Virus record (IMG/VR): IMGVR_UViG_3300028829_004140 | Location: 1 to 64,000 of that record | Length of the DNA: 64,000 nt | Direction: 5' to 3' (one strand) | Source: a virus | Part shown: piece after piece, positions 1-57,586 of the stretch | Layout: every line of letters begins with the position of its first letter | Position numbering within the stretch: the stretch's first letter is position 1 | Translations under genes and position numbers: made by a program | Notes under the pieces: generated by a model | What the model was told of the DNA's origin: nothing | What the model saw: the letters and a program-made list of their open reading frames with translations, nothing else | Database searches by the model: none

Positions 1-1
1 T

Positions 2-208
2 TACTATACTGGCAATCTGGACTTCGTTTATTTTCCGAGAGATTATTTCCCGGTTAGTTACTTTCCGGGACTTGTTCCGCTCGATACTACGGAAGTTAGT
101 TTTACTTTCAAAATTCAGACTCAATCTGAGAAGAAATTGGGTATAAATAGAGAGAGCGAAGCAACTTTAAAAATCAATCGTCAACTAGAATTTAAACTAG
201 AAAGATAA
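2..208 (+). CDS. 3' end of a truncated upstream gene (probably virion-associated), with YFPxxYFPxxYFP motif
   Basis: Open frame from base 2 to TAA at 206-208 (YYTGNLDFVYFPRDYFPVSYFPGLV...LEFKLER*). Followed by the GGAG RBS of the next gene. Confidence 0.6.
   Translation, partial: YYTGNLDFVYFPRDYFPVSYFPGLVPLDTTEVSFTFKIQTQSEKKLGINRESEATLKINRQLEFKLER
138..145 (+). promoter_or_regulatory. Putative late-promoter motif TGGGTATA
   Basis: Same TG[TG]GTATA octamer as at 5575, 9073, 12596 and 28951. Lies 75 bp upstream of ORF 220, but inside the upstream CDS. Confidence 0.3.
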
Positions 209-219
209 CAGGAGAAGTT

Positions 220-807: not shown

Positions 808-831
808 TTCTTACAAATATGAGGTTAAGAT

Positions 832-3311: not shown

Positions 3312-5536
3312 CAACTATTTATACTTTTGCCAATTTAGCAGACGCAGACCAAGGGGCTAGAACAGACCTTCGCCCATTTGGACAGTTCTATGCTCCAACA
3401 TCTGTCGCCACCCAATGTTATAACGCCCTTTTTGGTAAGGGGAATTATGATGGGGCAGATAAAAATCTTGCCGCCAATTTTGAGATGCAGGATAATGATA
3501 ACACAACCTTGGTGAGAGACAGTAGCGGTAACGGAAGAGATGGATACTTTAAAGATAGATTTGGTACGTGGGGTGGAGAATATTCATTTGGTACAACTTC
3601 TGATCTTTCTTATGAAGATGGTCCCAAAGGTTATTTGCCTAGATCTTTACATGTTCCGGGCAAGGAGAGCGGCTATGATCCCGGAGAAATAGCGTTTGGG
3701 GTCGGTACCAGCACTAAAATAGACTGGGCCGATATACCAGAATCTCAGGGGATAACACTTATTGGATGGGCTAACATGGGTCCAAGTTTTTCTGGTATGC
3801 AAATGTTTAGAAGGCTTGCTCACCCCAACCCCTTAGCACCTTCTGATTATTATTTTGGAATTCATAGTCAAAACAATGCTGGCTGGACTGCTTTCACGGG
3901 TAGTACCGGTGACTACACTGGCAACAGTTTAACTGTTACTCCAAACACTGGTGTAAATAGACTACAGCCAGACACATGGTATCATGGTGCTTATGTTATT
4001 AAGGATCTTAACAGAAAAATATATCAAGATGGCGTGTTAAAGGTTGAAAGGCCGGATGGGGCAACGGTAGTATATAATATTAACGCCGGTTTTTATATTG
4101 GTGGAGGTGGTTATCTTGCTGGTGTTTCTATGTTTAGTCGCGAATTATCAGCAGATGAAATCTCAGAAGCCTATTCCGGCCCAGAGCCATACGCACAAGT
4201 AATGCCCACAATATCAGGCACGCCCGCCGTGGGAAGTTTCATTACAATCAACGCCGGAACTTGGAACTCACAATCCAACGGGACGATAAGATATACATAC
4301 AAAATGTATAGCTATAGCGATACCGCCGGTTCGGACGAAAGATTAGAAAAAGAAGTTACTACTTTTCTAACATCGCAGAAGATACTTCTTCGTGGGTCAT
4401 CAAGACTAGCGGGCCGCTATCTAAGATTCATTATTTCTGCTGAAAATGATGGCGGAACTGACCCGCTTGAAGTTTATGAAACATCTTATACTGCGGCTGT
4501 TGCTTCGGGATCTGAGCCAGCTTATGTTAGCTATAACGCTTTGTTTGGTTATGGAAAACATACACACGATCCAGAACTTCAAACACGCATGTTATTTGAT
4601 AGTGATCCAACACTAGAAGAATTTCAGCAATATGGCGATTGGACTGTTAATAATATAGCTTTAACTGACTCTAATTTAGTAGACGTTGGACCTACTTCGT
4701 ATTTAACTAAATCTTTTAATCAATCAGTGGTGGGTCAAAATATTACATTTAGTTCGCCTAATGCAGATTTAACATCTACTGGATACACTGCTGGTTCTTG
4801 GGTCAAGCTAGATGCGTATGAACCTGTCGGCATTTCTAATGTCATATCTATGGCAAATCATAGTGGTGGCTGGATAGGCTTGCGGGTATTTGCAACTGCC
4901 TATTTTGCAACTGGTGCAGTTAATCCGCCGGTTGGTTTTAGCTGGAATAACGAAGTTGGGCTTGGTGGCTGGGGACATATTGTAGGAAGGCTCGATACTA
5001 CCGGTTTTCAACAGCCTTCTACTGCCGAGATATACTTAAATGCCGAGTCTCAAGCTTCTTCATCTTCCGCTGGAAGTTGGCATATCCGGCCAACCTCTGG
5101 AGATCTTATGTATCGTATACCGGGCAACATGGCGGATTTTTGGTGGATTCAAAGAAGTTTATCTGACACAGAAATTTCAGAAACTTACACAGGCCCAGAA
5201 CCAGTTAATGTTGTCCCGGCATCTATTTCGGGCGATTTTAGAGTTGGCTATACGCTTTCCATTTCCTCTGGCGTATGGGACTCTCAAAACAACGGAATCA
5301 TGACTAAAACTTACCAATGGTATCGTGCAGACGATATTAATGGAACAAACTTAACAGCAATCGCTGGAGAAACTTCTTCAACATACACTTTAACAATAAA
5401 TGATTATAAAAAATATCTAACCGTTAAGGAAAGATCCAGCAATGACGGGGGCTATGATGAGCTTGAAGACACGTTTGCAACTTACACTTCCCAAATAGCT
5501 TTACGTGGCGGAATGTTGATGTTAAAGGCTGGATAA
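3308..5536 (+). CDS. Virion protein with two tandem LamG/concanavalin-like + Ig-like units
   Basis: LamG-like motifs (VRDSSGNG, WYHGAYV, FSRELSADEI / IQRSLSDTEI). Each is followed by an Ig-like block (PTISGTPAVG..GTW; YQWYR...TSSTYTLT..D..KYL). Confidence 0.7.
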   Translation: MTTIYTFANLADADQGARTDLRPFGQFYAPTSVATQCYNALFGKGNYDGADKNLAANFEMQDNDNTTLVRDSSGNGRDGYFKDRFGTWGGEYSFGTTSDLSYEDGPKGYLPRSLHVPGKESGYDPGEIAFGVGTSTKIDWADIPESQGITLIGWANMGPSFSGMQMFRRLAHPNPLAPSDYYFGIHSQNNAGWTAFTGSTGDYTGNSLTVTPNTGVNRLQPDTWYHGAYVIKDLNRKIYQDGVLKVERPDGATVVYNINAGFYIGGGGYLAGVSMFSRELSADEISEAYSGPEPYAQVMPTISGTPAVGSFITINAGTWNSQSNGTIRYTYKMYSYSDTAGSDERLEKEVTTFLTSQKILLRGSSRLAGRYLRFIISAENDGGTDPLEVYETSYTAAVASGSEPAYVSYNALFGYGKHTHDPELQTRMLFDSDPTLEEFQQYGDWTVNNIALTDSNLVDVGPTSYLTKSFNQSVVGQNITFSSPNADLTSTGYTAGSWVKLDAYEPVGISNVISMANHSGGWIGLRVFATAYFATGAVNPPVGFSWNNEVGLGGWGHIVGRLDTTGFQQPSTAEIYLNAESQASSSSAGSWHIRPTSGDLMYRIPGNMADFWWIQRSLSDTEISETYTGPEPVNVVPASISGDFRVGYTLSISSGVWDSQNNGIMTKTYQWYRADDINGTNLTAIAGETSSTYTLTINDYKKYLTVKERSSNDGGYDELEDTFATYTSQIALRGGMLMLKAG

Positions 5537-11249: not shown

Positions 11250-11626
11250 CAAAAGAAAAAGAAGGAGAATACAACAACTTCTTAAAGAAGTCAATAGACT
11301 TAAAAAACATAAGGGAGCAGAGAAAAAAAGAGGTTTCTAAAGATGAACTCTTTAAAATCTGCAAAAAGAAAATTCAAACTACCATGATTGGAGCGTTGGA
11401 CGTTGTAGAAAAGCGTTTTGGGTTTCTATGGTCTTTTGAAGGTGGTGACGATTTATCGGAAGAGCAAAAACAACTAAAGGATATATACGACGAAGCCAGA
11501 GCCGATATTCTCGACAAAGGAAATACTCAGATAAGAAACTTAGAAGCAGAATTTTCAGATTACGAGGTCACAAAAAAGAGATATTCAATTAATTTACCTA
11601 TTTCAGAAAATAACTTAGGAGAGTAA
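11246..11626 (+). CDS. Hypothetical protein (126 aa)
   Basis: ATGA overlap; charged helical sequence. Confidence 0.65.
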   Translation: MTKEKEGEYNNFLKKSIDLKNIREQRKKEVSKDELFKICKKKIQTTMIGALDVVEKRFGFLWSFEGGDDLSEEQKQLKDIYDEARADILDKGNTQIRNLEAEFSDYEVTKKRYSINLPISENNLGE

Positions 11627-11628
11627 GA

Positions 11629-12588
11629 ATGGAAAATAATAAAACTATTGACGGTGTAGATAATAGCGGTAACTCGGTAAAGGTTATGCTTAAAACGCCC
11701 GGACCACAAGAATATAGAGATTCTCAGATTGAATACAACAAGGCTTTCAGGAAGGCTCTGGATTCAGGAGCGTTGCTGCGGCAAAAGTTAACTGATTATA
11801 TGACTGATCAGGGCATATGGAACGATGATAAGGAGAAAAAAAATGAAAGGTTTATCGAGGAAATAAGTGCTAAAGAAGAAATTATCAATAGTGGCGGTAT
11901 TAAACTATCGGAAGCTAGAGATATTGCCTTGGAACTAAGAGGTCTTCGTTATGAGTTTAGGGAATTTATTGCAGAAAAAAATTCTTTAGATCAAAATTCC
12001 GTAGAAGGACAGGCGGATAATGCCCGATTTTCTGAACTGGTCAGGCTTTGTATGCTCAACCCTAACACAAAAAAGCCATATTTTCAAACTCAAAAGGATT
12101 ATGACGCAAGTAGTGATCAGCCTTGGGTGGTAGAGGCTTCGTCAGAACTTGCTAGTATGATTTATGGGCTTGATCCTGACTATGACAATAAGTTGACAGA
12201 AAATAAGTTTCTTAAAGAGTTTGATTTTGTAAACGAAGAACTTAGACTTGTTAATGACAATGGACACCTTGTAGACATAGAGGGAAGACTCATTGACGAA
12301 GACGGTCGTTACGTAGCTTATCGAAATGACAAACAGATAGATAAAAATAAGTATTTTGTTAATAATTCTGGAGAAGAGGTTATTTCTATCACGGACGACG
12401 ATGGAAATACTACTTGGGTAAAAAAGGGTAAAGAAGTTAGACAGCCTTTCTTGGATGATGACGGAAATCCTATAGTATCCGCTAAAAAGGAAGACCTAGA
12501 AAGCGAAGAGGATTTGGTTGCAAAGGAAGTTAAATCAAAATCCAAAAGGACTAGAAAACCTGTTGAGTCAAAAAAAACATCTAGTTAA
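11629..12588 (+). CDS. Hypothetical protein, putative tail assembly chaperone
   Basis: Directly upstream of the TMP. Shares the 'G.W....K..E..IE.L..K' pattern with ORF 10197 and has short D.DG repeats. Confidence 0.55.
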   Translation: MENNKTIDGVDNSGNSVKVMLKTPGPQEYRDSQIEYNKAFRKALDSGALLRQKLTDYMTDQGIWNDDKEKKNERFIEEISAKEEIINSGGIKLSEARDIALELRGLRYEFREFIAEKNSLDQNSVEGQADNARFSELVRLCMLNPNTKKPYFQTQKDYDASSDQPWVVEASSELASMIYGLDPDYDNKLTENKFLKEFDFVNEELRLVNDNGHLVDIEGRLIDEDGRYVAYRNDKQIDKNKYFVNNSGEEVISITDDDGNTTWVKKGKEVRQPFLDDDGNPIVSAKKEDLESEEDLVAKEVKSKSKRTRKPVESKKTSS

Positions 12589-12595
12589 TAATAAT

Positions 12596-12603
12596 TGTGT
12601 ATA
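12596..12603 (+). promoter_or_regulatory. Putative late-promoter motif TGTGTATA
   Basis: Intergenic, upstream of the TMP; recurrent octamer. Confidence 0.55.
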
Positions 12604-12620
12604 GAATTATGGGAAAATAA

Positions 12621-12650
12621 TAATGGGGCACATTTTGCCCCGTTAGTTTT
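12621..12650 (+). terminator. GC-rich hairpin with short U tract upstream of the TMP (terminator- or attenuator-like)
   Basis: TAATGGGGCA-CATTT-TGCCCCGTTA followed by GTTTT. Confidence 0.5.
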
Positions 12651-12667
12651 AGCATAAGAAGGTAAAA

Positions 12668-15600
12668 ATGGCAGCTTTCAATCTAACGGCAGAAATACAA
12701 CTACAGGCTCCTAACACAAAAGGAGTCGCTAGTCAAATTCAACGAGACCTTAATGGTATAAAGCTTAATATTGACGTTGGTAAAAACGCAAGGAATTTAG
12801 CCTCTCTTCAGCAAAATTTGAATGGTCTTGCTAAACAAGGAGATAGGACTTCTAAGAGCTTTAATATTTTGAGCCGAAATGTTGCAGAGGCGGCCCGCAG
12901 GTTCAGTGTTATTACTGTTGCTACAGGAAGTTTCATTGCTCTTGCTAGAGGGGTTAAAACCTCTATTGGTAGTGCTATTGAGTTCCAAAGAGAGCTTGTA
13001 AAAATTTCTCAGGTTACTGGAAAAAGCATAGACCAATTAAAAGGACTGCAAAGTGAGGTTACTAGGCTTTCTACTACTTTAGGTGTATCTAATGCTGAAC
13101 TTCTTCAAACCTCTAGAGTTTTAGCTCAAGCGGGTCTTTCTGCCTTGAAAACTAGGCAAGCCTTGGATGTTCTGGCGCAAACAACCCTAGCACCTACGTT
13201 CGATACAATTATCGACACTACGGAAGGTGCAATTGCTATTCTTAATCAGTTTGGTAGACAGGCGGCAAAAACTGGCAATGATATCAGGTTCTTGGAAGAG
13301 TCGCTAGATGCTATAAACGCTGTTTCTAAGAATTTTGCTGTAGAGTCTTCTGATCTTATTGCAACGGTTCGTAGGACTGGTGGTGTATTTGAGGCTGCCG
13401 GTGGTAATCTTAAAGAACTGATAGCATTATTCACAAGTGTTCGTCAAACTACTCGCGAGGGTGCTGAAACTATTGCTACTGGTTTCCGTACAATTTTCAC
13501 TAGGTTGCAGAGAAAGGATACTATTGAAGCTCTTAATGAATTGGGCATTAGTTTGCAGGATGCGGAGGGTAAGTTTATAGGACCGCTAAAGGCCATTGAA
13601 AAATTAGCTATTGGTCTTTCTGGGTTAGATCCTAAAGATGTTCGATTTAATGAAATTGTTGAACAGCTTGGTGGTTTTCGTCAAATTGGTAAGGTTATTC
13701 CTCTTATTAAACAGTTTCAGGTTACACAGCAGGCTTTGGCTGTAGCCAATAATTCTGTTGGTTCCACTTCTAAGGATGCTCAAGAAGCTCAGAAAGCTTT
13801 GTCTGTGCAATTAGGTAAAACTAGAGAATCTTTTGACGCTCTTATTCGTAAGTTTACAGACAGTTCTACTTTTCAAGATTCGGCTAAATTTGTTCTTAAA
13901 CTTGCTAACACATTCTTAAAGTTTGCTGAATCTCTTGAAACTGTGCTACCATTGTTGACACAGATTGCCGCTATAAAGTTAGGTAGAAGTTTAGCTCCGG
14001 GACTTAGCCAGATTTTTGGCAGGGGTGCGCAAAAAAGAAATGCTGGTGGAAAGATATTGGGCTTTAACTCTGGTGGTGTGGTTCCCGGAAGCGGTAATCG
14101 CGATACTGTTCCAGCCATGCTTACTCCGGGAGAGTTTGTCATAAGAAAGAGTAGCGTTAATAAGCTAGGCGCTGGTACTCTCGCGGCGATGAATGAAAAT
14201 AGATTCAATAGAGGCGCTCGCATAAAAGAAGAATTAGATCAGCAAAGAAAAACAGATGTTTTTGACTTTAAAGAGGGCGCGACTATAAAGGCTGGCAAGG
14301 GCGGATCTGGAAGCCTCAAGGCGGCATTAACTCAGGCAGATTTACAAGCTGATGTTGATCCTTACCAAGCCGTATTTCTAAGACCTGAAGCTAAAGGCAA
14401 GCAATTTAATGGTGAGATATCAGCTAGTAATTTAAAAACAGCTGTTAAAGAGGCGATTGAAGGAACTAATATTCCGAAAACAGAATTAGGCACGGCAAAC
14501 CAGATTGCTGAAAGATACGCAAAAAGAAACAAATTCACATTAACCGCCGGATCTTTAGCCGCGCCTGAATCTGCGAGACTTGAGGGAACTCTTTTAGATG
14601 GTGTTTTTGAGACAGCTAAACGAGGCGCTAAAGATATAAATAATAGTCTTGGTATACAGGGCGAAAAGAATATAGCGACAGCTCTTAGGTCTGCCAATAT
14701 AGATCAAGTTTTGGGTAATTTGTTTGAAGTTGTTTTAAGTAATGCTGGCGCTCCGTTTGGTATGCCGGACACAGATCCGCCCAATGCTCCATTTGATTTT
14801 CCTTCTGGTCTTGGTGATATGGCTAAAAAGTTTGGATTGCAACAAGGCATAGAGACAGAGGCAAAATCATTTTTCTCAGGGGATAATTTAGCCACGATAA
14901 ATAAAAAAATACAAAATCAATTAATAAATGAGTCTATAGATGAGCTTAGGGCTATATACAGACAAAATTTGACTGGGAGCAAAGAGATATCTTTAGATGA
15001 GGCGAAAAAGGCTTTTGGTTCAACTAGATTAAATAAAGATGATGTGACTAGACTTGCAGAGGAAAGAGGGTTAGATTTTACAGGACTTGGAGGCGGCAAG
15101 TATACTCTAAATAAAAAAAATGCCGGAGGAGGTATTTCTGGTTCTGACACGGTTCCAGCTTTGCTGACTCCCGGTGAGTTTGTTATGAACAAAAGTGCTT
15201 CACAAAGTATTGGCTATACCAATCTAAACAGAATGAACAAGCATGGCGTTCAGGGGTATGCTGATGGCGGAATAGTTGGTTTCCAAAGTTATGCTACTGG
15301 CACCGGCACTCTTGGCGCAAGGAGTGCTGGGGCTGTTAACTTTAAAGGCATTAATAGCATCACGGGCGCGGTTTCAAGGCTAAGTAAATCACTGGCTAAG
15401 ATGGGAGTTTCTGTTGATAATCAAATTCCTGTTTTGAAAAAATTTGAAGAGGAACTAAAAAATGGAGTCAAGGCTTCTGAAGCTATCGCTAGAACCTTTG
15501 AAGATACTGATATTAATGTTAGCAAGACTTCTGATAAACCAGATGGTAGTTCCGACGATCTTCGAGAGGCATTGGAAGGCGTTGCTGACTCTTCCGAAGA

Positions 15601-18600
15601 AGTATCGGACGCAAATAAAGAACAGGCTAGTAAAATTAGAGGAATTGGGGAAACTTTTAATAAAGTATCAACTGCTGCATTAGCTATATCTTTCGCTGGC
15701 GGAACTTTAATTGAGTCTTTTGGTGGTATCACCGAAGAACAAAAGGTGTTCAGTCAAGCGGTTCTAAATACGGTTAGTGCAAACCTTGCTTTAGGGGGCC
15801 AATTCGCATCTTTAGGCTATGAAGTCGCTGCTCAAATTTCTACCAGTTCCATTCTTAAAAAATCGACACTACAAACTGCTTTAGCTTTGGATAAGTTGAG
15901 CGGATCTGCTACTAAAACTAGTGCTACTGGTGGCAGTGGTAGCGCTGTCGGTAATGCGGCTGGAAAAGCTCTTGGCGTGGCTGCTACGGCAGTGGCTGTG
16001 GGTTTTATTGTGTCCTCTATTGTAAAGGGTATCACCGAGGGTTACAAAGCGGTTGAAAGACTTCAACTGGATGCAGCCAACAAAGTAGCCGATAAGCAAT
16101 TAGAGGCTTTGGAGGAGGGTCGTGGTGCGAGTGAAAAAGATTTTGTATCGGCAAGACAGAAAGCGGCGGGAGCAGACCTAAATATACAGAGATTGGAAGA
16201 ACAGGGTTCAGCCGGTTCTTCTGCGGCTTTAACAACAGGCGTAGTTGTTGGGACTGCTGGCCTTGCTGTATCAGCGGGTTCGGCTGCCATAGCGGCTAGT
16301 TCTTTAACAGGTAGTCTCGCGACTGCTGCCGTTGCTGTCAACGCCATTCCCGTAGCGGGACAGGTCGCATCCGTTGCCCTTATTGCCGCTGCTGCTGCTG
16401 CTAGCGCTGCTACTTTTGCTTTTTACGCTGCCGCCGAAAGCGAGAAGGAGAAGGCAGAGGTTAATGAATTATTAGCTAAGACTTCTAAAAATTATGCCCT
16501 TACTCAGTTTAGGTCTATCAAGGCCGCAAAAGCTCTAACAGACAACCTGCAATCCGCTGCTGACGCAGGTGCTTCTGCCTCGACCCAAATAGGAATTCTT
16601 GCTAGTGCAACAAACAATGCACAGTCTGAAATTAAAAATAATGCATCTCGACTTAGTGATGCAACTGAACAAGAAGCAGAGCTTCGTAAAAAACTTATAG
16701 ATCAGGGGGTTCTTACCGAAAAGGGCAACGTTTCTTCTGGTGCAGACACCGATGACGACAGTGTTAAAGACCAGCTAAAAACTCTTGAACAGCTAACCAA
16801 GCAAAGAGAAGCTGCCGAAAAAGCGGATATCGAACTTATAAAAACAACCACACAAAAAGCCGCTGTTTTTAGAACTTTGGCTCAAAAGGCTGTTTCAGAG
16901 GGTTTGACAGAGATTGGCAAACTGGGACCGGCTGCTTTAGCTAATATTAACGGTCTTGACGGGTTGGCTAAAATTACTCCGGATCTTTCTAGATCAATTA
17001 CAGTCGCAAAGAACAAATTTGAAGAGCTTAAAAATCTAGAACTTAAAAAGGCTTTAGAAGGAGAAGATGACGAAGGTGTTAAAAACGCATTAAGAAGAAA
17101 ATCGGAAGCTGAGATCATTGTTTCCCAAATTGAACTCGTTAAAAGTGCAGAAGAACAAATTTTGGCACAGCAAAGAGTGGCAAGGGCATCGCTTTTAACA
17201 GAGCAGGCAGAAAGACAAAAAGCTTTGACCCTGCTCAAAGTAAATAAAAATCTTAGTGCCTTCAACTTGTTACTATTACAGAGTGACAAATTGAGCGGTC
17301 TTTATGACGCTGTTGAAGACTTTGGTAAAGGGGGAAGTTTTGGTGCCGTTAAGTTTGACACAAGTATTTTTGATATCACTTTCAAGCAATTAAACGACAA
17401 GGCGATTGAAAGAATTAACAATCTTGGCAGAGGTGCTATTGGCAAGGACGCCACTGGATTTGCCAAAAATATAAGAGATGTTAAAAATATAACAAAGGGT
17501 TTACCATCGGTATTTGAAAGTTTCCGAAGAAGCGGCAAGGATTCAGAAATTGTAGATATTCCCACTCTTAAAAAACAGCTTTCTCAACAAATAGCAAGAG
17601 ATGTGCCCGGAGGATTAGATGGGCTAGGCGGTGACATTCGTGCTATCATAGAGAAAAACGCAGACGAGGCTATTGGAAGCGGCATAAAAGGATCTTTAAC
17701 TTTTGAAAGTCAGGAAAAACTTAACAAAGAACTTGAAGAGGCTATTCAGGGACAGATAGACGTTTTCAAGCGAGGGGTAGAAATTCAAAACCAGTTTTTA
17801 CAAAAACTTGCAGATTTAGACTCTAAAATAATATCCGCTCAGGGAAGAATAATTGATGCTCAGGTTAGAGTTTCTGACGCATTTGAAAGAAATGCAGACA
17901 GGCTTGCAGACGCTAGTGAAAGACCTCGATCAAGACAGGAAAAAGAGGCGGGAAGACTTCGCACAGCTAGTATTGGTTTAGGGGCAACGGCTAGACAGGC
18001 CGGTGCTAGGGCTGGTGATGTAACCGCGACCGCAAAAGCTTTTAAGAGCTTAACTCTTGAATCAAGAAATTTAAGAAAAAAACAAAGACAGCTTGCCAGA
18101 TCTACTTCACCTAATCCTAAAACTACGAACATGATTGCTAAACTTGGCAGCTCGGCAAACGATGCAGCTAAAGGTGCGGCCAGAGCAAAGGCAGAATTAG
18201 AAAGGTTGGCAGATCAGTCGGCTAGAGCCGCAGATGTAGAAAAGGATTTGACAAAACTTAGAGAAAAAAGATCAGAAGCAGAGAGCCTGCAAGAATCTGT
18301 CGCTTTTGGAAGTGATGAACAAAGGCAGGAAATATTTAAAGGATTTAGATTACTTAATCAATCAATAATGCAGGGTGGTATCCAAGGCGCTAATAGTGAA
18401 CAAAGGGCGTCTATTGGAAATGCTCTAGATTCTATCGGTAGCCAGCTTATTAATTTTGAAGGTCAGCAGGTTACAGGTAAAGAATTAAAACAAATCTTTG
18501 CAGCTAGAGAAACTGGAAGATTGGGCGCTTTCGGACTTAATAATTTCATAGATAATCTTAGGAAAGCTGAAAACCCTTTGTTGGGCGAACTTAAAGACAT

Positions 18601-21600
18601 CGCTAAAACAGAACTGACGGCTACTGCCGCCTTAGCGATGGTTGAAACTCAGGAACTTCGAGTATTAAAAGATATTAGAACTGCACTTGTTGGCACATTC
18701 CCAGAAGAATTAGCTAATGCTCAGAATGATGCCGCCAATGATCTTGGTAAAGGCGAAGAGGATGCCGGACGAGGGATTGCTGCCAATCAAGATACTTTAG
18801 TTAAGTTAAATCAGACCATCGCGACACAGACAAAAAGAGTTGCCGATTTAACAGAGAAAATGGCGGAGAAACAGGGCATTAACATAGAGGCTATTGAAGA
18901 TTTAGACAGGGCACGGCAACGGCAGAACGAGGCGCAAAATAGATCTAGGGGCGGTCCTATATATATGAATGATGGTGGAGTAGTTCCCGGCAGTGCCCCA
19001 ACGCCAAAAGGAATGGAAGAAGTATTTAAACCAAAAGGTACAGACAATGTTCCTGCATATTTGTCAGAGGGCGAGTTTGTTATCAAGAAGTCTTCTGTTG
19101 ATAAAATTGGAACGGATGCCTTACATCAGATAAACAACGGCGGAACAGTTTACGCTAAAGAAGGAAGTAAAAAGGCCATCGGGAAAAAGGATGAAGATAA
19201 TTTATTGAATGCCGTCTTTGGTAGCGTGAATAACTTTGTCAATAACGAAATGGGAAGCAGCGCTCTTGGTTCCATGCGTGGTGAAAGGCGTGATCCATTG
19301 TCGCCCTTCGATCCAAAGTTCGCTCTTGGTTACACGCGTGATGAAAGGCTTGAGGATTTTAATTTTATAAATGACGCCATAGACGGTATCGCGTCTTTTA
19401 CTTCTGCTGATATTAATATAATGCCGGAAGCGTTAAAGATTGTAGACTCTGTGCCAATTTTTAGCAAATTGCTTGAAGACACAAAGGCTCTTAGTTATCT
19501 ACCGGGTGGCGGTTTAGCTAATGCTATGCTTAAAAAGGCTAACGAGTCAGTATTTGCTGAGGGCAAACTTCTTGATCCTAGAAGACTTCAAAATAGACAA
19601 GGAGATCAAAAGGGTATTAAATTATTTAAAGAGGGGATGTATGCTTCTCAAAACAAGCTAGACCAAGTAAGAGATGATAATGCACTGGCGCTAATGTCTG
19701 GTGTTGTGCCTGCTTCCGTGTATGAAGCCGCTGAATTAATACCTGAAAACTCTTTGGAGCAAACGGATAAACAGAAAATTGTTTCTCAGCTTTCTGATAA
19801 AGAGCTAGAGCGACTAACTCAGGTAGGCGCAAGTATCACACAGAATTCAAACATAAAAACTGCTGATACTACAGGCGGTAGTATTGCTAGATTTTTGGGT
19901 GAGGGCATACTAGAAAAAGGAATAGGACAAGATACTATATTTAATAAGGCTCTTGATTATCTACCGGGTGGCGGTTTAGGTAATGCTATGCTTGAAAAGG
20001 CTAACGAGTCAGTATTTGCTGCGGGCAAAGCTAAAAAATCTGATGACGATCTTTACAGTTCTATAGAGGTAAGCCCACTTTGGGAAGATGCTATGGATGA
20101 AAAAATGAAAAGACTTGCTGAAGAAAGAATAAATAAGAATAAATTTATTATCGCACAAGGGGAAAAGCAAAGAGAACTTGCTGGCAAAACGCTTGAAAGT
20201 CTAGGAGTTAGAGAAAGGATTGACGCCAATTGGGTAAAAACCGCGAAAAATAGAAATGAGTTCGGCCCCAAAGAGGGGTCGTCTGGATATGATTTTACCA
20301 CTGTTAGCGATGTAAATCAGCTTGAAGCAATGGCTGCTGGCTTTGACCCGACTGCAACATTTGATAAAAAAACTGGTAAATGGAAAGGCGAGGCTCTTGC
20401 GGACGATAAGCTTGGAGGACTACGATTTTCTGCACGGGCAGAGCTTGACGCAAGACGAAGAGTTGAAGATGATAAGAAAAGAATAGAAAGATATCGCGAG
20501 ACTCTAAAAATAAGAGGCGCTGAAGCGGCGGAAAAATACGCTAAGGATGTTGGGATTTGGAAGAGTGTGAGTGATGAACACAAGACCCCAGTAAAAACAA
20601 TCGCGCAAGAATATCAAGAAAGCAAAGACAAACAAGACCTAGAGGATCTTAGAAAAAGAAAAGAATACCTAGATGAACAAGCACGCAAGAAAGCAGAATT
20701 TGATGGTTCTATTGCTGGCGCTGATAAAACGAATGCCGGATTTGGCACGATGGGCGGCGGCGATATTGAATATTCCTTTGGAATATTGCAAATGCAGAAA
20801 GAAAAAGCTGACGCACAAAAAGCTCTAGACCAAACTATTCCCGGATCAGTGGCTTATAACAAAGCTAAAAGAGACTTAGAGGAATTACAAGATCCAAATT
20901 TAGCAGCTAGTAATTTTAATGCTGATCAAAAACGTCGTCAAGACTCGAAGATGTTTTTTGGTGGATCAAAGGAAAACTTGAAATCTATTAGCGAAAAAAA
21001 CAAGCGGTCCGCTTCTAATTATGACAAGAGCATGGCGCCGTTACTAGCCAAGATGGAAAGTCTAAAGGACAACATTAACAAAGAAAAAAATCAAGTTAGA
21101 GCAGCTAGGATGCAGGAAAACTACGACAGTATATCTCAGGAATTGGGTCAAATCCAAGATCGTGCCATAGAATTACAGAAAAACAAAAATGAAGAAGGAA
21201 TGGAAGAAGTATTTAAACCAACAAGGCAAAATGTAAACTCAAGAAGAAAGGCTAGATTAGCAGAACAGCGAGGAAGATTATCTGGTACAAAATCTAACAC
21301 AGGTAGGAATAGAATCCTTCCTGATGAAACGAAAGAAGATGGCGATGATTTTTCTAGAGATAAGTACAACAGACTTCTTAGGGTTAATGGTCTAGCGGCG
21401 GCAAGTAGATATGCAACATCTAAAAATAAAAATCCTCAACAGCTAACAACAGGCAATAACCAACCCGGACAACAGAGGGCCGGAGGACAGCAGCAGCAGA
21501 TTCTACAATTCATCTTCAATCTTTTAAAGCAGGGAGGAATAGATCCTATAGAGCTTGCGAAAGGCTTCAACAAAGGTGGTGGAACCGTGGATAATATTCC

Positions 21601-22105
21601 TGCCATGTTAACAGAGGGTGAGTTTGTTATGAATGCCAAATCTTCGGCTGACGTGGGACTTCCAAACCTAAAATACATGAACGAAAATGGTGCCATACCC
21701 GAGAAATTCGCTAAGGGTGGTGTTGTTGGAGGGGTGAAAACCTCATATTTGAGACGTGGCGGTTCTCCTCGCGGATCAGGGGGTCCACTAGAGATAAATA
21801 CTGGGTCATTTAGTGAGGTATTGGATAAATTTAGTGCGGCTTTTGGTAGTAGGCTTGATAATATGGTATTAAACTTTGATGTTTTAGGAAATGCCATGAA
21901 TAATCTTTCCTCAGTAATAACACAAGGAATGAAAGTTAATCATTCATTTAGTGGAGACATGACGATGACATTCAATCTGCCAGATAGTGCGGTTTCGGAT
22001 ATTGTGAAATCGGTAGCAGATGCTATTACTCCTAAAATGAAAGAAAGCATCAAGCAAGAAGTTGATAAGCGATTTAATCCAAATTCATTTAATGGGGGAC
22101 AGTAA
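12668..22105 (+). CDS. Tail tape measure protein (3145 aa) with TP901-type N-terminal domain, hydrophobic segments and four DxVPAxLxxGEFV modules
   Basis: Longest ORF, downstream of tube and chaperones. PhageMin_Tail-like region (..AETIATGFRTIFTRL..LGISL.D..GKF..). Ala-rich hydrophobic stretches and coiled-coil composition. Confidence 0.9.
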   Translation: MAAFNLTAEIQLQAPNTKGVASQIQRDLNGIKLNIDVGKNARNLASLQQNLNGLAKQGDRTSKSFNILSRNVAEAARRFSVITVATGSFIALARGVKTSIGSAIEFQRELVKISQVTGKSIDQLKGLQSEVTRLSTTLGVSNAELLQTSRVLAQAGLSALKTRQALDVLAQTTLAPTFDTIIDTTEGAIAILNQFGRQAAKTGNDIRFLEESLDAINAVSKNFAVESSDLIATVRRTGGVFEAAGGNLKELIALFTSVRQTTREGAETIATGFRTIFTRLQRKDTIEALNELGISLQDAEGKFIGPLKAIEKLAIGLSGLDPKDVRFNEIVEQLGGFRQIGKVIPLIKQFQVTQQALAVANNSVGSTSKDAQEAQKALSVQLGKTRESFDALIRKFTDSSTFQDSAKFVLKLANTFLKFAESLETVLPLLTQIAAIKLGRSLAPGLSQIFGRGAQKRNAGGKILGFNSGGVVPGSGNRDTVPAMLTPGEFVIRKSSVNKLGAGTLAAMNENRFNRGARIKEELDQQRKTDVFDFKEGATIKAGKGGSGSLKAALTQADLQADVDPYQAVFLRPEAKGKQFNGEISASNLKTAVKEAIEGTNIPKTELGTANQIAERYAKRNKFTLTAGSLAAPESARLEGTLLDGVFETAKRGAKDINNSLGIQGEKNIATALRSANIDQVLGNLFEVVLSNAGAPFGMPDTDPPNAPFDFPSGLGDMAKKFGLQQGIETEAKSFFSGDNLATINKKIQNQLINESIDELRAIYRQNLTGSKEISLDEAKKAFGSTRLNKDDVTRLAEERGLDFTGLGGGKYTLNKKNAGGGISGSDTVPALLTPGEFVMNKSASQSIGYTNLNRMNKHGVQGYADGGIVGFQSYATGTGTLGARSAGAVNFKGINSITGAVSRLSKSLAKMGVSVDNQIPVLKKFEEELKNGVKASEAIARTFEDTDINVSKTSDKPDGSSDDLREALEGVADSSEEVSDANKEQASKIRGIGETFNKVSTAALAISFAGGTLIESFGGITEEQKVFSQAVLNTVSANLALGGQFASLGYEVAAQISTSSILKKSTLQTALALDKLSGSATKTSATGGSGSAVGNAAGKALGVAATAVAVGFIVSSIVKGITEGYKAVERLQLDAANKVADKQLEALEEGRGASEKDFVSARQKAAGADLNIQRLEEQGSAGSSAALTTGVVVGTAGLAVSAGSAAIAASSLTGSLATAAVAVNAIPVAGQVASVALIAAAAAASAATFAFYAAAESEKEKAEVNELLAKTSKNYALTQFRSIKAAKALTDNLQSAADAGASASTQIGILASATNNAQSEIKNNASRLSDATEQEAELRKKLIDQGVLTEKGNVSSGADTDDDSVKDQLKTLEQLTKQREAAEKADIELIKTTTQKAAVFRTLAQKAVSEGLTEIGKLGPAALANINGLDGLAKITPDLSRSITVAKNKFEELKNLELKKALEGEDDEGVKNALRRKSEAEIIVSQIELVKSAEEQILAQQRVARASLLTEQAERQKALTLLKVNKNLSAFNLLLLQSDKLSGLYDAVEDFGKGGSFGAVKFDTSIFDITFKQLNDKAIERINNLGRGAIGKDATGFAKNIRDVKNITKGLPSVFESFRRSGKDSEIVDIPTLKKQLSQQIARDVPGGLDGLGGDIRAIIEKNADEAIGSGIKGSLTFESQEKLNKELEEAIQGQIDVFKRGVEIQNQFLQKLADLDSKIISAQGRIIDAQVRVSDAFERNADRLADASERPRSRQEKEAGRLRTASIGLGATARQAGARAGDVTATAKAFKSLTLESRNLRKKQRQLARSTSPNPKTTNMIAKLGSSANDAAKGAARAKAELERLADQSARAADVEKDLTKLREKRSEAESLQESVAFGSDEQRQEIFKGFRLLNQSIMQGGIQGANSEQRASIGNALDSIGSQLINFEGQQVTGKELKQIFAARETGRLGAFGLNNFIDNLRKAENPLLGELKDIAKTELTATAALAMVETQELRVLKDIRTALVGTFPEELANAQNDAANDLGKGEEDAGRGIAANQDTLVKLNQTIATQTKRVADLTEKMAEKQGINIEAIEDLDRARQRQNEAQNRSRGGPIYMNDGGVVPGSAPTPKGMEEVFKPKGTDNVPAYLSEGEFVIKKSSVDKIGTDALHQINNGGTVYAKEGSKKAIGKKDEDNLLNAVFGSVNNFVNNEMGSSALGSMRGERRDPLSPFDPKFALGYTRDERLEDFNFINDAIDGIASFTSADINIMPEALKIVDSVPIFSKLLEDTKALSYLPGGGLANAMLKKANESVFAEGKLLDPRRLQNRQGDQKGIKLFKEGMYASQNKLDQVRDDNALALMSGVVPASVYEAAELIPENSLEQTDKQKIVSQLSDKELERLTQVGASITQNSNIKTADTTGGSIARFLGEGILEKGIGQDTIFNKALDYLPGGGLGNAMLEKANESVFAAGKAKKSDDDLYSSIEVSPLWEDAMDEKMKRLAEERINKNKFIIAQGEKQRELAGKTLESLGVRERIDANWVKTAKNRNEFGPKEGSSGYDFTTVSDVNQLEAMAAGFDPTATFDKKTGKWKGEALADDKLGGLRFSARAELDARRRVEDDKKRIERYRETLKIRGAEAAEKYAKDVGIWKSVSDEHKTPVKTIAQEYQESKDKQDLEDLRKRKEYLDEQARKKAEFDGSIAGADKTNAGFGTMGGGDIEYSFGILQMQKEKADAQKALDQTIPGSVAYNKAKRDLEELQDPNLAASNFNADQKRRQDSKMFFGGSKENLKSISEKNKRSASNYDKSMAPLLAKMESLKDNINKEKNQVRAARMQENYDSISQELGQIQDRAIELQKNKNEEGMEEVFKPTRQNVNSRRKARLAEQRGRLSGTKSNTGRNRILPDETKEDGDDFSRDKYNRLLRVNGLAAASRYATSKNKNPQQLTTGNNQPGQQRAGGQQQQILQFIFNLLKQGGIDPIELAKGFNKGGGTVDNIPAMLTEGEFVMNAKSSADVGLPNLKYMNENGAIPEKFAKGGVVGGVKTSYLRRGGSPRGSGGPLEINTGSFSEVLDKFSAAFGSRLDNMVLNFDVLGNAMNNLSSVITQGMKVNHSFSGDMTMTFNLPDSAVSDIVKSVADAITPKMKESIKQEVDKRFNPNSFNGGQ
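19261..19353 (+). repeat. Imperfect 33-bp repeat at 60-bp spacing inside the TMP
   Basis: cgctcttggttccatgcgtggtgaaaggcgtga vs cgctcttggttacacgcgtgatgaaaggcttga (4 mismatches). Confidence 0.8.
19484..20029 (+). repeat. 84-bp direct repeat inside the TMP (19484-19567 and 19946-20029)
   Basis: 79/84 identical; encodes KAL.YLPGGGL.NAML.KANESVFA.GK twice. Confidence 0.9.
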
Positions 22106-22108
22106 AGT

Positions 22109-22801
22109 ATGCCTATAGTGGGTGGTATTGGTCTTCTAACCAATAAAAATTTGTTTATTAAAGGTTATCCAGATGGATCTGGTGTTTCGCCTTTGTTTAT
22201 TGGGCCTGCAAACAGGGAGAATATTGAACAAACCCTGTTTACTACTGGTCCAGTAGCATCTGATGTTCCTCTGTTTATTGGATTTGATCAAGTTTCTTCT
22301 GGTTCCCAAAGTGCTTATATACTAGGGACTCAAGGTTTTGGAGGTAGTCCTGACCAGTTAGACATAACTTTAAGAATCGAAGGAACGGATGGATCGCTTT
22401 TTACAGACATAAACACACTTACGCTTTTAGGACCGGAAAAGATTGATGATAATTCAACAACAACTTTATTTACTGAAGCTGGCTCAATCCCAACCGGGTC
22501 TGGAACTTTACAGTTCTTTACCGAAGGGGCTAGTGCAACCACAACCAATCCCGTGTTAGAAAACTCCACAGTAAATCTTTTTATTAGAAATGAACAGACA
22601 TTTAATTCTGATGCCACGCTTTATGTAGAGAAAGACTTTAACACTGCTGAAACGAGTACCCTGTTTCTAAAAAGCAACACACCTAGCGGAGTCGCGACCT
22701 TATATTCGTCGGGGGTTGGGGTTAATACTGCCTCCGCTAACCTGTTAATAAAAGCGCCAGAAGTTAGAAAAATGAGTATATTTTCGCGTGGATATAATTA
22801 G
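22109..22801 (+). CDS. Hypothetical tail-associated protein with short LF[I/T]xG repeats
   Basis: Follows the TMP; Thr/Ser-rich with repeated LFI/LFT motifs. Confidence 0.65.
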   Translation: MPIVGGIGLLTNKNLFIKGYPDGSGVSPLFIGPANRENIEQTLFTTGPVASDVPLFIGFDQVSSGSQSAYILGTQGFGGSPDQLDITLRIEGTDGSLFTDINTLTLLGPEKIDDNSTTTLFTEAGSIPTGSGTLQFFTEGASATTTNPVLENSTVNLFIRNEQTFNSDATLYVEKDFNTAETSTLFLKSNTPSGVATLYSSGVGVNTASANLLIKAPEVRKMSIFSRGYN

Positions 22802-22811
22802 GAGATAATTA

Positions 22812-25037
22812 ATGACAAGTTTTACTTACACTATCCCAAACGTTAGCCCGATACAGATTTCTGGCGCCCCTTTGCCAGCGGTAGATCCTAATACTGGCAG
22901 CGGTTTTCCTCTGGCTGGCCCGTTACCAAGCTACACAATTGAAACGGAGTTGCTTCGCAAGGGAAATTTGTACCTTGGTCAAAAATTCATTATTACCATT
23001 ACCGGAACAACTCTTGTAGATCCTTCAAAAAGTATGCTTGTTAAAGGAGAAAGACAGGCGGCTGTTGCTGAAAAGGTTACAGAGATTATATCTCTTACTT
23101 ATGGAAATAACAAGGATATCGGTCCCCGTGCTGGATCTTTAGTTATAACAGATAGGGGCGGAATAAATCCCATAACCTTTACTGATGCGATTTTGATAAG
23201 CGTAGAAGCATCTGAGCAGACTGAGGAAAGTCAAGGCGTTCAAGATCAAAGTTACGTGTTCACCTTTGAAAGTAATAATTTTTCATGCAAGGATGAAAAT
23301 GGAAACCCTATATCAACCCTTGATAGCTTGTATAAACCTAGTGTAGATTCTACTACTGGCGGTGCAGTAGACAGGTCATTACAACCAGACTCTAGATATA
23401 TTATTGACTATTCCGAAGATTGGTCGCTAACGCCAAATGAAGATGTTAAAACAATAAAAGACCCATTTAAAAAAGAAGGTCTAGAACCTAGACAAGATTT
23501 AGATCCTGATAAGGCGGAAGAGTCCCCTTCAAACGTGTTTAAGACATGGACTTTAACTCACAATATATCTGCGACAGGCATTCCGTTTAATAGCCCTCTA
23601 GATAATAGCGAAGAGCCTCAAGATGCGATTGGTTATGGCAATAATGCCGCTGGTTTTCGTTGGGCTAAGAGGTTTATTGATGCTCGACTGCGAACTATGG
23701 GTAACGATCCTCTGGATAATACTACTACGGTATGGGGAGAAGGTGAGGGTACAGATGGTCAAGGAAACTCACTTAGATTTAGAAAACCTGAAACTATCAC
23801 ATCTGCACCAATAAACAACGACCCCGGCGACAAAATTTTAGGCGAAAATTCCAGTAACCTGCCTAAAGAAGCTCATACTTATAAAACTAGCGAGAAGGCT
23901 TCAAATTTTAAAGCTTTCAATCAAGTGAATCAATTTCAAAGAGGCGTGACAGAAGGAACCTATTCTGTTACTCGAACTTGGCAGATTGCTAATATGTTTG
24001 GGTTTAAAACTCCCGCAAAAATGGAAGTGGACTTTACTTTAGACGGTGGAATTGCCGGTTCCAGTGTAAATACAATAGGTGTAAATATTTCAGTAGAAGG
24101 CTGGAGCGAGCCTAACGACGGAGACAACGCTGCTGTAGGCTCGATTGATGAGTCTCCTAATCTAGGAGAGATGGGGTTAGATACTAAGTATAAACATGCT
24201 TGGAATTGGGTAAATAATTACGTGTTAGCATTACCTTTGCCAAGAAAAGCACCTTCTTCGCCAGAAAGTTTTACCCCTCCCGGACCAGAAATTGCTGAAC
24301 CTAAGACTTATGCCACGGATTTGATATATGAATGGGCAAGACGGTATTACGAAGACGTTGTGGGTTCGAGGCCACAGTCTCCTCAAGAGGGCAATGTTAG
24401 GATTGTGGAAGCTAATATTCCCGATTGGAGAAGGGATAATAAAGCTATTCAGCTTCAGCCGATACCATTGACTTTTAGCAGAACAGATAATGAGACTGCT
24501 GGAACTATCACTATATCAACTTCGTTTAATGATCAAGAACCCTTATTTAAGGGTGCGACTTCAGCAGATGTTAGTGTTGATATGGGCAACGAAGATGGAT
24601 CAATTCAGGGCATTGCTATAAAGCCTGTCATTGGTAAAGAAGATGGTCCAGTCATTCAAGATATGAAAATTACACCTGAGAGAACTAGAAGTGTTACATT
24701 GAATTTAGTTATGGATAGATATTATAGATATGTTGTACCTGATGGATTTATCTGGATCGACAAGTATTGGAAACCTCTTCTTGGTAAATATACAAAGGGT
24801 CCAAACGCAGGTAAAGATATACCTGTTTATATAAGAAGTAGGAATCAAAACTGGAACCCTATAACGGGACAATATAGCGCATCAGTAGAGTATGTTTGGA
24901 CAGAATTTAATCCTTTACCTTTCGAAGATAATGAAAAACCAGAAAATTATGAACCGCAGTCGAACAAAACTGGAGTTAATCCTGATGGAGCTGGAACTAT
25001 ACGTAGAGTAGACCAAGGTCCAGTAGAACAAGCCTAA
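22812..25037 (+). CDS. Putative tail-tip (distal tail-like) protein
   Basis: AGGAG RBS; large beta-rich protein after the TMP. Confidence 0.55.
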   Translation: MTSFTYTIPNVSPIQISGAPLPAVDPNTGSGFPLAGPLPSYTIETELLRKGNLYLGQKFIITITGTTLVDPSKSMLVKGERQAAVAEKVTEIISLTYGNNKDIGPRAGSLVITDRGGINPITFTDAILISVEASEQTEESQGVQDQSYVFTFESNNFSCKDENGNPISTLDSLYKPSVDSTTGGAVDRSLQPDSRYIIDYSEDWSLTPNEDVKTIKDPFKKEGLEPRQDLDPDKAEESPSNVFKTWTLTHNISATGIPFNSPLDNSEEPQDAIGYGNNAAGFRWAKRFIDARLRTMGNDPLDNTTTVWGEGEGTDGQGNSLRFRKPETITSAPINNDPGDKILGENSSNLPKEAHTYKTSEKASNFKAFNQVNQFQRGVTEGTYSVTRTWQIANMFGFKTPAKMEVDFTLDGGIAGSSVNTIGVNISVEGWSEPNDGDNAAVGSIDESPNLGEMGLDTKYKHAWNWVNNYVLALPLPRKAPSSPESFTPPGPEIAEPKTYATDLIYEWARRYYEDVVGSRPQSPQEGNVRIVEANIPDWRRDNKAIQLQPIPLTFSRTDNETAGTITISTSFNDQEPLFKGATSADVSVDMGNEDGSIQGIAIKPVIGKEDGPVIQDMKITPERTRSVTLNLVMDRYYRYVVPDGFIWIDKYWKPLLGKYTKGPNAGKDIPVYIRSRNQNWNPITGQYSASVEYVWTEFNPLPFEDNEKPENYEPQSNKTGVNPDGAGTIRRVDQGPVEQA

Positions 25038-30006: not shown

Positions 30007-30792
30007 ATGGCTAGGGTTGATGTTTCTATTTGTATAGCCACTTGGAACAAGGCAGGTCTTTTATCACAGACCTTAAAAAGTATTCGTAAACAGGAAACAA
30101 AGCTCAACTACGAAATTGTCGTGGTTGATGATGGAAGTTGTGATGGTACAAAAAAGGTTTGTCAGAGTTTTGATGTTGTTTATCATTATTTAGATAGACC
30201 TTATTTGTGCGGCTCTGCTACTGCAAGAAACATGGCTTGTGACATAGCCAAAGGTCGGGTTCTTATTATGCAGTCCGACGACGTTGTTCACATGTCCCCG
30301 TCCTATTCGTTGGGTGCTTGTAAGTGGTTACGCGATAATAAAGTTGGTGGTGTTATTTCTTGTGAAAACCTTAAATCTAGCATTGATAAACTTTATGAAG
30401 TTCCAGACAAGTCTGCCCATTTTGCCCCAGTTCTTAACGTTGCATACAACAGATCAAATCCAAAGGCTAGTAAAACACTTCGGTGGTATTGCAATTGGTG
30501 GAAACAAAAACGTCCTTTGTTTTTTCTAGGGTCAATGTCCAAGGATGATTTTTGGGCGATTGGCGGAAACGATGAAGATTTTACAAGGCCGGGATATGAA
30601 GACACATATCTTGGTGCTTTGATTACTAGGCTTTATGATGTTTATTTCAGGGATGATATCATAGGTTTTCACCAAAGTCATAAAGGAAGAATTAGTGGTT
30701 TTTTAGATATGAGAAAGTTATACGCAAAAAAGATTTTAAGTATTGATAGCAAGGTTGAAGGTTTAAGAAAAGAAATTTATGGAGAGGATTAA
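30007..30792 (+). CDS. Glycosyltransferase family 2 (GT-A)
   Basis: SICIATWN, EIVVVDDGS.DGT, ARN, DD, IGGNDEDF..PGYED motifs. Confidence 0.9.
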   Translation: MARVDVSICIATWNKAGLLSQTLKSIRKQETKLNYEIVVVDDGSCDGTKKVCQSFDVVYHYLDRPYLCGSATARNMACDIAKGRVLIMQSDDVVHMSPSYSLGACKWLRDNKVGGVISCENLKSSIDKLYEVPDKSAHFAPVLNVAYNRSNPKASKTLRWYCNWWKQKRPLFFLGSMSKDDFWAIGGNDEDFTRPGYEDTYLGALITRLYDVYFRDDIIGFHQSHKGRISGFLDMRKLYAKKILSIDSKVEGLRKEIYGED

Positions 30793-57545: not shown

Positions 57546-57586
57546 ATGTTCCTCAAATCTATTTCGCAAAGTTTAGTGTACGTCTT

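Follow-up and report, generated by a model that had tools for sequence, protein, structure and literature searches.

Tape measure proteins (TMPs) are seen as plain rulers that occasionally contain a lysin. What, then, does a short sequence module do when it recurs four times within a single tape measure gene, and what are the stretches that its copies separate? The locus that raises this question lies in a 64,000-nt stretch of viral DNA, hereafter the window, which is the start (positions 1 to 64,000) of the linear IMG/VR virus record IMGVR_UViG_3300028829_004140 (72,741 bases; CheckV completeness 47%) and has a GC content of ~39%. The source phage is uncultured and marine, and the region 18500–21900 was found in 18 marine, seawater or aquatic-viral metagenome runs from 7 studies. 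The 3145-aa product of the gene is a TP901-type TMP, since its matches to Pfam PF10145 PhageMin_Tail (aa 130–336, E 6.5e-27, 95.1 bits against a cut-off of 33.2) and to TIGR01760 (aa 90–435, E 2.7e-28, 99 bits against a cut-off of 28.8) exceed the curated cut-offs; it also matches several PHROG tape-measure families. Here, we propose that the module is probably a structural joint that depends on partners and delimits exchangeable segments of the ruler, because it is conserved as protein, its copies are old and position-specific, and the junctions fall at the module.

An initial annotation of the window, made from its letters without database searches, had described four dispersed copies of the module in this gene. 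We recovered the core D.[VI]PA.L..GEFV at residues 479, 827, 2126 and 2975 (nt 14102, 15146, 19043 and 21590), identical to the positions reported there, and a degenerate DNA pattern for PA.L..GEFV matched the 64-kb window four times against 0.00 matches expected from 100 shuffles. Compared with one another by blastp, the modules gave E values of ~6e-6 to 7e-13, and a hidden Markov model (HMM) of the module detected all four with independent E values of 1e-22 to 2e-31, in the envelopes that delimit the joint modules in Table 1. Searched in six frames, the complete record (72,741 bases) yielded the four TMP copies and no further match. The flanking motifs agreed with the annotation as well: FNSGG, KNAGG, MNDGG and FNKGG precede copies 1 to 4, YADGG follows copy 2 and FAKGG follows copy 4, the downstream motif being degenerate in copies 1 and 3. 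By blastp, only the module itself is common to the copies, and their flanks are unrelated. The four modules thereby divide the protein into an N-terminal core (N-core), segments B, C and D, and a C-terminal tail (C-tail).

Each module spans 60–80 residues and consists of [YF]AxGG, DTVPAMLTPGEFV, two short helices, L..xN and a closing [YF]AxGG.V. We derived its consensus by aligning 772 instances, taken from the 150 proteins that scored best in a profile search. It begins with [YF]-A-x-G(99%)-G(89%)-x-[VI] and a short variable loop, continues with the core D(94%)-T-V(90%)-P(95%)-A(95%)-M-L(96%)-T-P(89%)-G(100%)-E(96%)-F(88%)-V(95%), and after ~13 residues reaches L(90%)-x-x-[IML]-N(95%), from which 3–6 residues lead to [YF](80%)-A-x-G(91%)-G(91%)-x-V. 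The module has no Pfam family: at E≤1, nothing in Pfam hit this part of the window protein. It is matched by PHROG 35029, whose function is not annotated. A profile built from the modules of the window and its relatives matched lambda gpH (8iyk_H) at residues 732–785 (E 8.6e-6; hmmsearch 1.8e-10), and by this significant match the window module can be taken as a joint module of the lambda gpH C-terminal type. In gpH the module lies outside both Pfam families that cover the protein, TMP_2 (54–256) and Tape_meas_lam_C (627–701), and the latter (PF09718) does not match the window protein at E≤1. The single gpH copy, at 732–785 of 853 residues, accords with the statement of the initial annotation that the motif usually occurs once, near the C-terminus of lambdoid TMPs.

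The module is nevertheless far from confined to lambda and the window. Against the sequences of solved structures, the profile found gp16 of mycobacteriophage Douge twice (972–1026 and 1415–1461; E 1.6e-12), and a PDB search with module 4 plus the C-tail gave nothing relevant. When module 1 was searched against phage genomes by tblastn, 427 records were hit at 511 places; almost all of these fell within genes annotated as tape measures, mostly of Mycobacterium (303) and Gordonia (90) phages, the Gordonia records among the matches listed having two places each. T4-like cyanophages were matched as well: Synechococcus phage S-SM2 (SSM2_012; L012 4002–6299) carries a module 72.7% identical to module 1 over 44 aa, inside a 766-aa ‘transmembrane protein’ open reading frame (ORF) just behind the gp26 hub gene, which has no Pfam match and is probably the tape measure of that phage. 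A profile search of 1.84 billion representatives returned 28,844 hits at E≤1e-3, 8,562 at 1e-10 and 1,460 at 1e-30. Building a module HMM and tabulating copy numbers and intervening segments, as the initial annotation had suggested, showed several copies in 150 of the 150 best hits, which are 1,026–7,872 aa long and carry 3–10 copies each by hmmsearch: 3 copies in 2 proteins, 4 in 61, 5 in 41, 6 in 20, 7 in 14, 8 in 10, and 9 and 10 in one each. Full-text searches of a limited literature collection retrieved no description of the module or of a repeated joint, and the module is uncatalogued.

Comparison with relatives revealed that the modules border a fixed backbone on one side and exchangeable segments on the other. 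Cutting the 150 proteins at their modules gave 884 segments in 304 clusters and a common plan: N-core, joint, slot, joint, ruler body, joint, 0–7 joint-fenced segments, and C-tail. The N-core (cluster 0) forms the N end of 139 of the 150 proteins, and the ruler body (clusters 1 and 13) accounts for 138 segments of ~1,100–1,500 aa. The C-tail belongs to clusters 2, 5 and 7, the distance from the last module to the C end having a median of 123 aa (5th–95th percentile, ~90–340), as compared to 122 aa in the window protein and 68 aa in lambda. The slot between the first two joints holds cluster 3 (~290 aa, 49 proteins), cluster 4 (~1,058 aa, 40 proteins) or others, and between ruler body and C-tail we counted no variable segment in 4 proteins, one in 70, two in 31, three in 17, four in 8, five in 6, and six and seven in one each, with 12 proteins lacking a ruler cluster in this count. 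The variable slots make up most of the 304 clusters, many of them singletons, and tandem modules that share one GG motif occur at 33 of 622 gaps, in 28 of the 150 proteins. The window protein itself reads cluster 0, cluster 3, cluster 13, a singleton (787 aa) and cluster 5.

Individual relatives displayed the same division. Six IMG/VR loci (L001–L006) are 43–92% identical to the window protein in the N-core and carry 3–4 modules where complete. Homology with L002 is collinear over residues 4–540, 591–2166 and 2967–3144, and L002 has modules 3 and 4 in tandem, without the 787-aa segment D. Segment C is 31% identical to, and collinear with, that of L002, and 45% identical to that of P0157, a single distant and partial relative from the protein search. 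With L001, protein identity is 90% up to residue 509 and then stops; at the DNA level, homology (78.8%) breaks off at 14148, within the module 1 core, and L001 has ~760 extra residues ahead of its segment B homologue. With P0157, the 45% identity extends over residues 979–2166 and stops at the C-terminal motif of module 3, beyond which P0157 continues with ~600 unrelated residues. The initial annotation had proposed that the modules divide the TMP into cassettes, and had taken conserved intermodule segments without domain swapping as the contrary outcome. We found instead that the segments vary, that segment D is missing from L002 and that many clusters are singletons; together with L001, P0157 and the metagenome contigs described next, this upholds the modules as borders of exchangeable segments.

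The exchange can also be observed in wild populations. We placed the contigs of four metagenome runs from four studies (X10, X15, X17 and X18) on the region 18500–21900. Contigs show presence, not absence; the stretches of segment D left uncovered in X15, X17 and X18 are uninformative, and only contigs that diverge from the window were counted. The flanks (18500–19156 and 21320–21900) have depths of ~26–27 in X10, 28.7 in X15 and 8.7–10.2 in X18, and between them the path of the window has a depth of 14.8 in X10 (one contig of 2,252 nt, 19127–21378), a patchy 0–15 in X15 and 0 in X18. In these three runs, other contigs match the flank and then diverge from the window, and the alternative contigs of all three carry identical 30 letters behind 19156 and identical 30 letters ahead of 21320. 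Position 19156 is the final base of codon A2163 in T-V-Y-A/K-E-G (the slash marks the border), i.e. it lies inside the Y-A/x-G-G motif. Past it, the alternative allele continues with D-G-G-G-S-I-T-E-K (hand translation) and, because D-G-G follows Y-A, has the canonical Y-A-D-G-G that is degenerate in copy 3 of the window. In X17, one contig agrees with the window from 19068 onwards, at codon 2134 within the module 3 core, and differs upstream. Residues 2164–2884 are one allele of a naturally polymorphic cassette whose left junction lies inside the joint, and this population-level polymorphism, with its junction inside the Y-A/x-G-G motif, is new here. Scans of viral and metagenome contigs with the right and left flanks found no relative of the alternative allele. 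Two sets of repeats, one of 27 nt and one of 84 nt (Table 1), are signs of recent rearrangement in and around segment D.

While the segments change, the modules themselves are old. The four cores share 51–59% nucleotide identity over 93 nt, with exact runs of 8–17 nt, the longest (17 nt) being common to copies 2 and 4. The core amino acids are, however, 88–100% conserved across the family, and selection therefore acts on the protein. When 22 modules, those of the window protein and of six relatives, were placed in a tree, they grouped by position and not by protein (support for the module 1 clade, 97/90), with 4 label changes where the minimum is 3 and the shuffled mean 12.4, none of 200 shuffles being as low. 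Since the tree groups modules by position, the copies are old paralogues kept in place, neither recent duplicates nor undergoing homogenisation. The position-specific phylogeny and the conservation of the module as protein and not as DNA are likewise new here.

How might such a joint work? Sequence comparisons place it between the conserved backbone (N-core, ruler body and C-tail) and segments that are gained, lost or replaced in related phages and in co-occurring wild strains. Predicting the structure of a single module, another check proposed by the initial annotation, succeeded in part: an AlphaFold2 (AF2) monomer of module 2 (66 aligned sequences) contained only two short helices (residues 37–54), and its confidence was low, with a predicted local distance difference test score (pLDDT) of 57, because of which no fold search was made with the model. 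From this low-confidence monomer we infer that the joint may not be an autonomous domain, and the model fits an element that would fold against partners. Probably, the joint would take shape only once three or six chains of the tape measure lie side by side, or else against the tube or the hub. Such a node would keep these chains aligned on both sides of an inserted segment, and any segment between two joints would thus still yield an assemblable ruler. The last joint and its tail of ~120 aa would be the counterpart of the C-terminal region of lambda gpH, which is contained in gpHC at the tail tip; cutting beside the joint, as in lambda, is possible, and plausible by analogy only.

Several observations weigh against the joint as we picture it. 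No predicted structure or complex supports the idea of a node. In the cryo-electron microscopy maps of lambda (PMC12617516) and Douge (PMC13033339), the module regions are not built, the built residues being only gpH 818–849 and Douge gp16 1658–1699, respectively. One copy is the rule in cultured phages (511 places in 427 records), and the 150 proteins, being those with the highest summed scores, are biased to many copies. The right border of the polymorphic cassette, 21320 (codon 2885), lies 79 aa upstream of module 4 and not at a module. Junctions at modules are supported by the ends of high-scoring segment pairs (HSPs) of at least 200 aa among the 150 proteins (n=49,335), 48% of which fall within 10 aa of a module against 12.5% for random positions; this enrichment is, however, inflated, both because alignments run through the conserved module and stop at its far edge and because HSPs are non-independent, many repeating the same ancestral events; for unique HSP ends, the value is 25% against 12.5%.

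What the segments contain bears on the alternatives. The initial annotation had taken them for non-ruler cargo, which is plausible for segment B alone. The AF2 model of segment B (11 sequences; pLDDT 74.5; predicted template modelling score, 0.67) is a folded alpha/beta domain, and homologues are found in L003, L005, L001 and L002 and kept at this slot as cluster 3. No Pfam, PHROG or PDB-sequence match was found for it, and its model gave no Foldseek match against PDB or BFVD at E≤1e-3, the best result of the VIA wide search being helical hairpins (Z 5.4). Its alignment displays the conserved motifs GNLFE, PFDFP and ETEAK, which had suggested a PD-(D/E)xK nuclease; this candidate was dropped when no nuclease appeared in Foldseek against PDB and BFVD or in VIA wide. 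By eye, L002 (11567–12853) has apparently two segment B units and L004 (11531–12493) has one, with WDFP ... GDAKRS. Segment D is, in contrast, ruler-like in composition (helix formers 0.50, acidic plus basic residues 32%) and has no Pfam or PHROG family match; its nearest named Atlas clusters are tape-measure families, with scores at chance level. The best ESM Atlas scores of segments B and D (0.90 and 0.83) fell on unnamed clusters and were not used. In the ruler body, hydrophobic stretches lie at aa 1097–1256 (nt 15956–16435), and the rest is rich in helix formers. Among 13 giant relatives, Pfam gave only PhageMin_Tail above cut-offs and no enzyme family in the cassettes, and six cassette stretches from five close relatives and the whole of P0157 gave no Pfam match. 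No peptidase family was found in the TMP or in 32 neighbouring ORFs, nor JAB or NlpC/P60 peptidases in the 72.7-kb record, which is 47% complete.

The initial annotation had also suggested that the module could be a processing signal and the TMP a polyprotein delivery platform. Under such a scheme, the aromatic-A-x-G-G motifs would be cleavage sites, cut during tail maturation or ejection, and segments B and D would be released into the host. Precedents for the cut exist: lambda gpH is cleaved in a glycine-rich region to gpH* and the ~14-kDa gpHC, by a protease that the available part of the report does not identify (PMC12617516), and the glycine-rich stretch (698–722) lies just ahead of the module (from 732), so placed that cuts at 710–737 would leave a calculated 14.6–12.2 kDa. 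T5 pb2 is cut after R1127 (PMC10038345), and a JAB domain has been proposed to cut behind a terminal glycine of gpI (PMC1779556); gpK (JAB) might, by our own reasoning, act on gpH. The GG motifs are, moreover, 89–99% conserved. However, copies 1 and 3 of the window no longer have the C-terminal GG motif, T5 pb2 does not match the module in sequence, the cassettes examined contained no recognisable enzyme family, and no protease was recognised in the incomplete record or the 32 neighbouring ORFs. We therefore find no support for either suggestion, and regard cleavage at the motifs as rather doubtful. That the joints are cut sites of a tail-lumen polyprotein, whose inter-joint segments would be strain-variable proteins injected ahead of the DNA, seems to us unlikely; if it were true, the wild polymorphism of residues 2164–2884 would be an arms-race locus of delivered effectors.

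A recombination anchor had been proposed too, and the modules could in principle serve as nucleotide homology for recombination, the protein motif being incidental. The end of the window/L001 DNA homology at 14148, the wild variant that branches at 19068, the 17-nt run of copies 2 and 4, and the exact 27-nt repeat that joins the N part of module 3 to the interior of segment D would all suit this explanation. It is opposed by the contrast between the divergent DNA and the conserved amino acids of the cores, which speaks for selection on the protein, by the clustering of copies by position without homogenisation within the gene, and by the retention of the module in single-copy tape measures such as that of lambda, where it has no partner copy; an anchor acting on DNA inside the gene is thus improbable. 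Each module might, alternatively, bind the baseplate hub or the tube wall, as do the C-terminal 42 residues of T5 pb2*, which become lodged between hub subunits once the tip has opened; with several such hooks, a very long ruler would be fixed at more than one point, or docked step by step at ejection. For the JBD30 TMP, a ‘hook’ has been predicted at residues 1022–1066 and compared with the C-terminal part of T5 pb2* (PMC11445458), which after the cut at R1127 is docked in the hub (PMC10038345). Our first profile aligned weakly to JBD30 1019–1070 (E 0.55), the two short helices of the AF2 model and the constant proximity of the last module to the C end (median 123 aa) would fit a hook, but the JBD30 match was gone with a better profile at E≤10, T5 pb2 never matches, and modules 1 and 2 are located towards the head-proximal end, at a great distance from the hub. 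We give this explanation, too, a low probability. Besides being rivals of the structural joint, cutting at the joints, anchoring of DNA and hooks may each contribute in part. Finally, the copies could be ordinary internal repeats left by segmental duplication and without a role of their own. Tape measure proteins do grow by duplication, and the gene carries recent small duplications (84 nt at 94% identity, 27 nt exact); yet only the module is common to the copies, its key residues are near-invariant across the 772 instances, and lambda and Douge match it, all of which makes this origin very improbable.

Returning to the structural joint, which we favour, its closest known counterpart is the C-terminal region of lambda gpH, where one module (FATGG ... 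PAGIVHRGEFV ... YATGGYVG) is followed by a short tail in the tip, the two corresponding to module 4 and the 122-aa tail of the window protein. Unlike the latter, with its four copies, lambda has one, in which the asparagine position is R, and its backbone consists of TMP_2 and Tape_meas_lam_C and is not of the TP901 type; of the two proteins, only that of lambda has a documented cleavage (PMC12617516). Douge gp16 (PDB 8ZDO/8ZDQ) and the Gordonia tape measures are cultured multi-copy carriers, with two copies as opposed to four here. T5 pb2 and the predicted JBD30 hook share a short docking element near the C end beside a cleavage site (PMC10038345, PMC11445458), but T5 pb2 has no sequence similarity to the module, and the JBD30 match was weak and not reproduced. 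Tape measures with embedded domains are described in the accessible portions of PMC1796659 and PMC10770324: the peptidoglycan-hydrolase motif of TM4, the peptidase of T5 pb2 and the RNA-polymerase fusion of P23-45. These set a precedent for a ruler that carries non-ruler parts into the cell, although their inserts are recognisable enzymes whereas the segments here match no family; the same portions contain no mention of proteolysis or TMP cleavage. Polyvalent proteins (Iyer et al. 2017, PMC5512222) are also giant and multi-segment, accompany the DNA into the host and rearrange their parts rapidly, but they are strings of known enzyme domains with self-processing peptidases, none of which was found here, and that paper mentions tape measures 0 times.

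The module is thus a very widespread and conserved element without a Pfam family (28,844 cluster representatives), which organises giant tape measures into a fixed backbone and exchangeable segments and adjoins the lambda gpH cleavage, itself unexplained. Should the joint be a node for registration or docking, it would explain how a ruler tolerates large insertions without loss of assembly. If it is instead a cut site, tails would be carriers of variable injected proteins, and the module would indicate where lambda gpH is cut. Both readings could be tested in cultured carriers, of which lambda has a single copy and Douge, like the Gordonia phages, two. The features of the gene are compiled in Table 1.

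Table 1. Parts of the tape measure gene, its joint modules and its repeats, in coordinates of the window.
Feature	Residues (aa)	Positions (nt)	Strand	Remarks
Tape measure protein gene	1–3145	12668..22105	+	3145 aa, single ORF
N-terminal core, conserved backbone	1–454	12668..14029	+	segment cluster 0; 43–92% identical in L001–L006
Joint module 1	455–524	14030..14239	+	C-terminal GG motif degenerate (FNRGA)
Segment B	525–810	14240..15097	+	predicted folded alpha/beta domain; segment cluster 3
Joint module 2	811–877	15098..15298	+	ends in YADGGIVG
Segment C, ruler body	878–2091	15299..18940	+	clusters 1 and 13; hydropathy scan
Joint module 3	2092–2171	18941..19180	+	C-terminal motif degenerate (YAKEG); population breakpoints 19068 and 19156
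Segment D	2172–2963		+	singleton cluster; between modules 3 and 4
Polymorphic cassette allele	2164–2884	19157..21319	+	bulk of segment D; metagenome contigs
Joint module 4	2964–3023	21557..21736	+	ends in FAKGGVVGG
C-terminal tail behind last joint	3024–3145	21737..22105	+	segment cluster 5; 36% identical to L002 C end
Exact 27-nt direct repeat, copy 1		19008..19034	+	N part of module 3, KGMEEVFKP
Exact 27-nt direct repeat, copy 2		21195..21221	+	inside segment D; 2187 nt = 729 codons beyond copy 1
84-nt repeat, first copy		19484..19567	+	encodes YLPGGGLANAMLKKANESVFAEGK; 94% identical to 19946–20029
84-nt repeat, second copy		19946..20029	+	inside segment D

The gene lies inside a long block of same-strand ORFs without family matches that is presumably structural. 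Within this block, no ORF gave a PHROG match at 1e-5 except one downstream glycosyltransferase, and the ORFs adjoining the tape measure gene, among which a chaperone, distal tail and hub proteins were looked for, had neither PHROG nor Pfam matches. A megablast search of 12000–24000 against 50,697 phage records returned no match. Near the end of a 126-aa ORF, two genes upstream of the tape measure gene, an A_AAA_AAG heptamer lies in phase at 11572–11578 (+); a G/GT-type frameshift was considered here and rejected, since the −1 frame stops four codons on (TAA at 11590; by eye) and there is consequently no G/GT-type fusion to the next ORF.

Elsewhere in the window, replication genes were recognised by PHROG family matches to a DnaB-like helicase, a primase, an exonuclease and a DNA polymerase. 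The polymerase is split over two ORFs, 55944–57569 (−) and 52564–54141 (−), which correspond to positions 246–612 and 626–1080 of the phrog_405 profile, and between them lie two ORFs (54264–54953 and 55009–55722) without an assigned family. At the strand switch of the genes, the ORF 36793–37605 (−) has HNH/homing-endonuclease matches (phrog_559, phrog_3339). The region 30007–52231 holds many sugar- or modification-type genes, including a GT2 (30007–30792), a radical SAM protein with SPASM domain (30792–31892), a methyltransferase plus glycosyltransferase fusion (32035–34503), a glycosyltransferase (34500–35345), a second GT2 (40129–40962), an FkbM methyltransferase (40892–41509), a nucleotide-sugar epimerase (42534–43496) and a 551-aa glycosyltransferase (50576–52231). 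Upstream of the tape measure gene, a 742-aa ORF (3308–5536, +) contains a concanavalin-A-like Laminin_G_3 domain (E 5.4e-16) and may encode a fibre or decoration protein.

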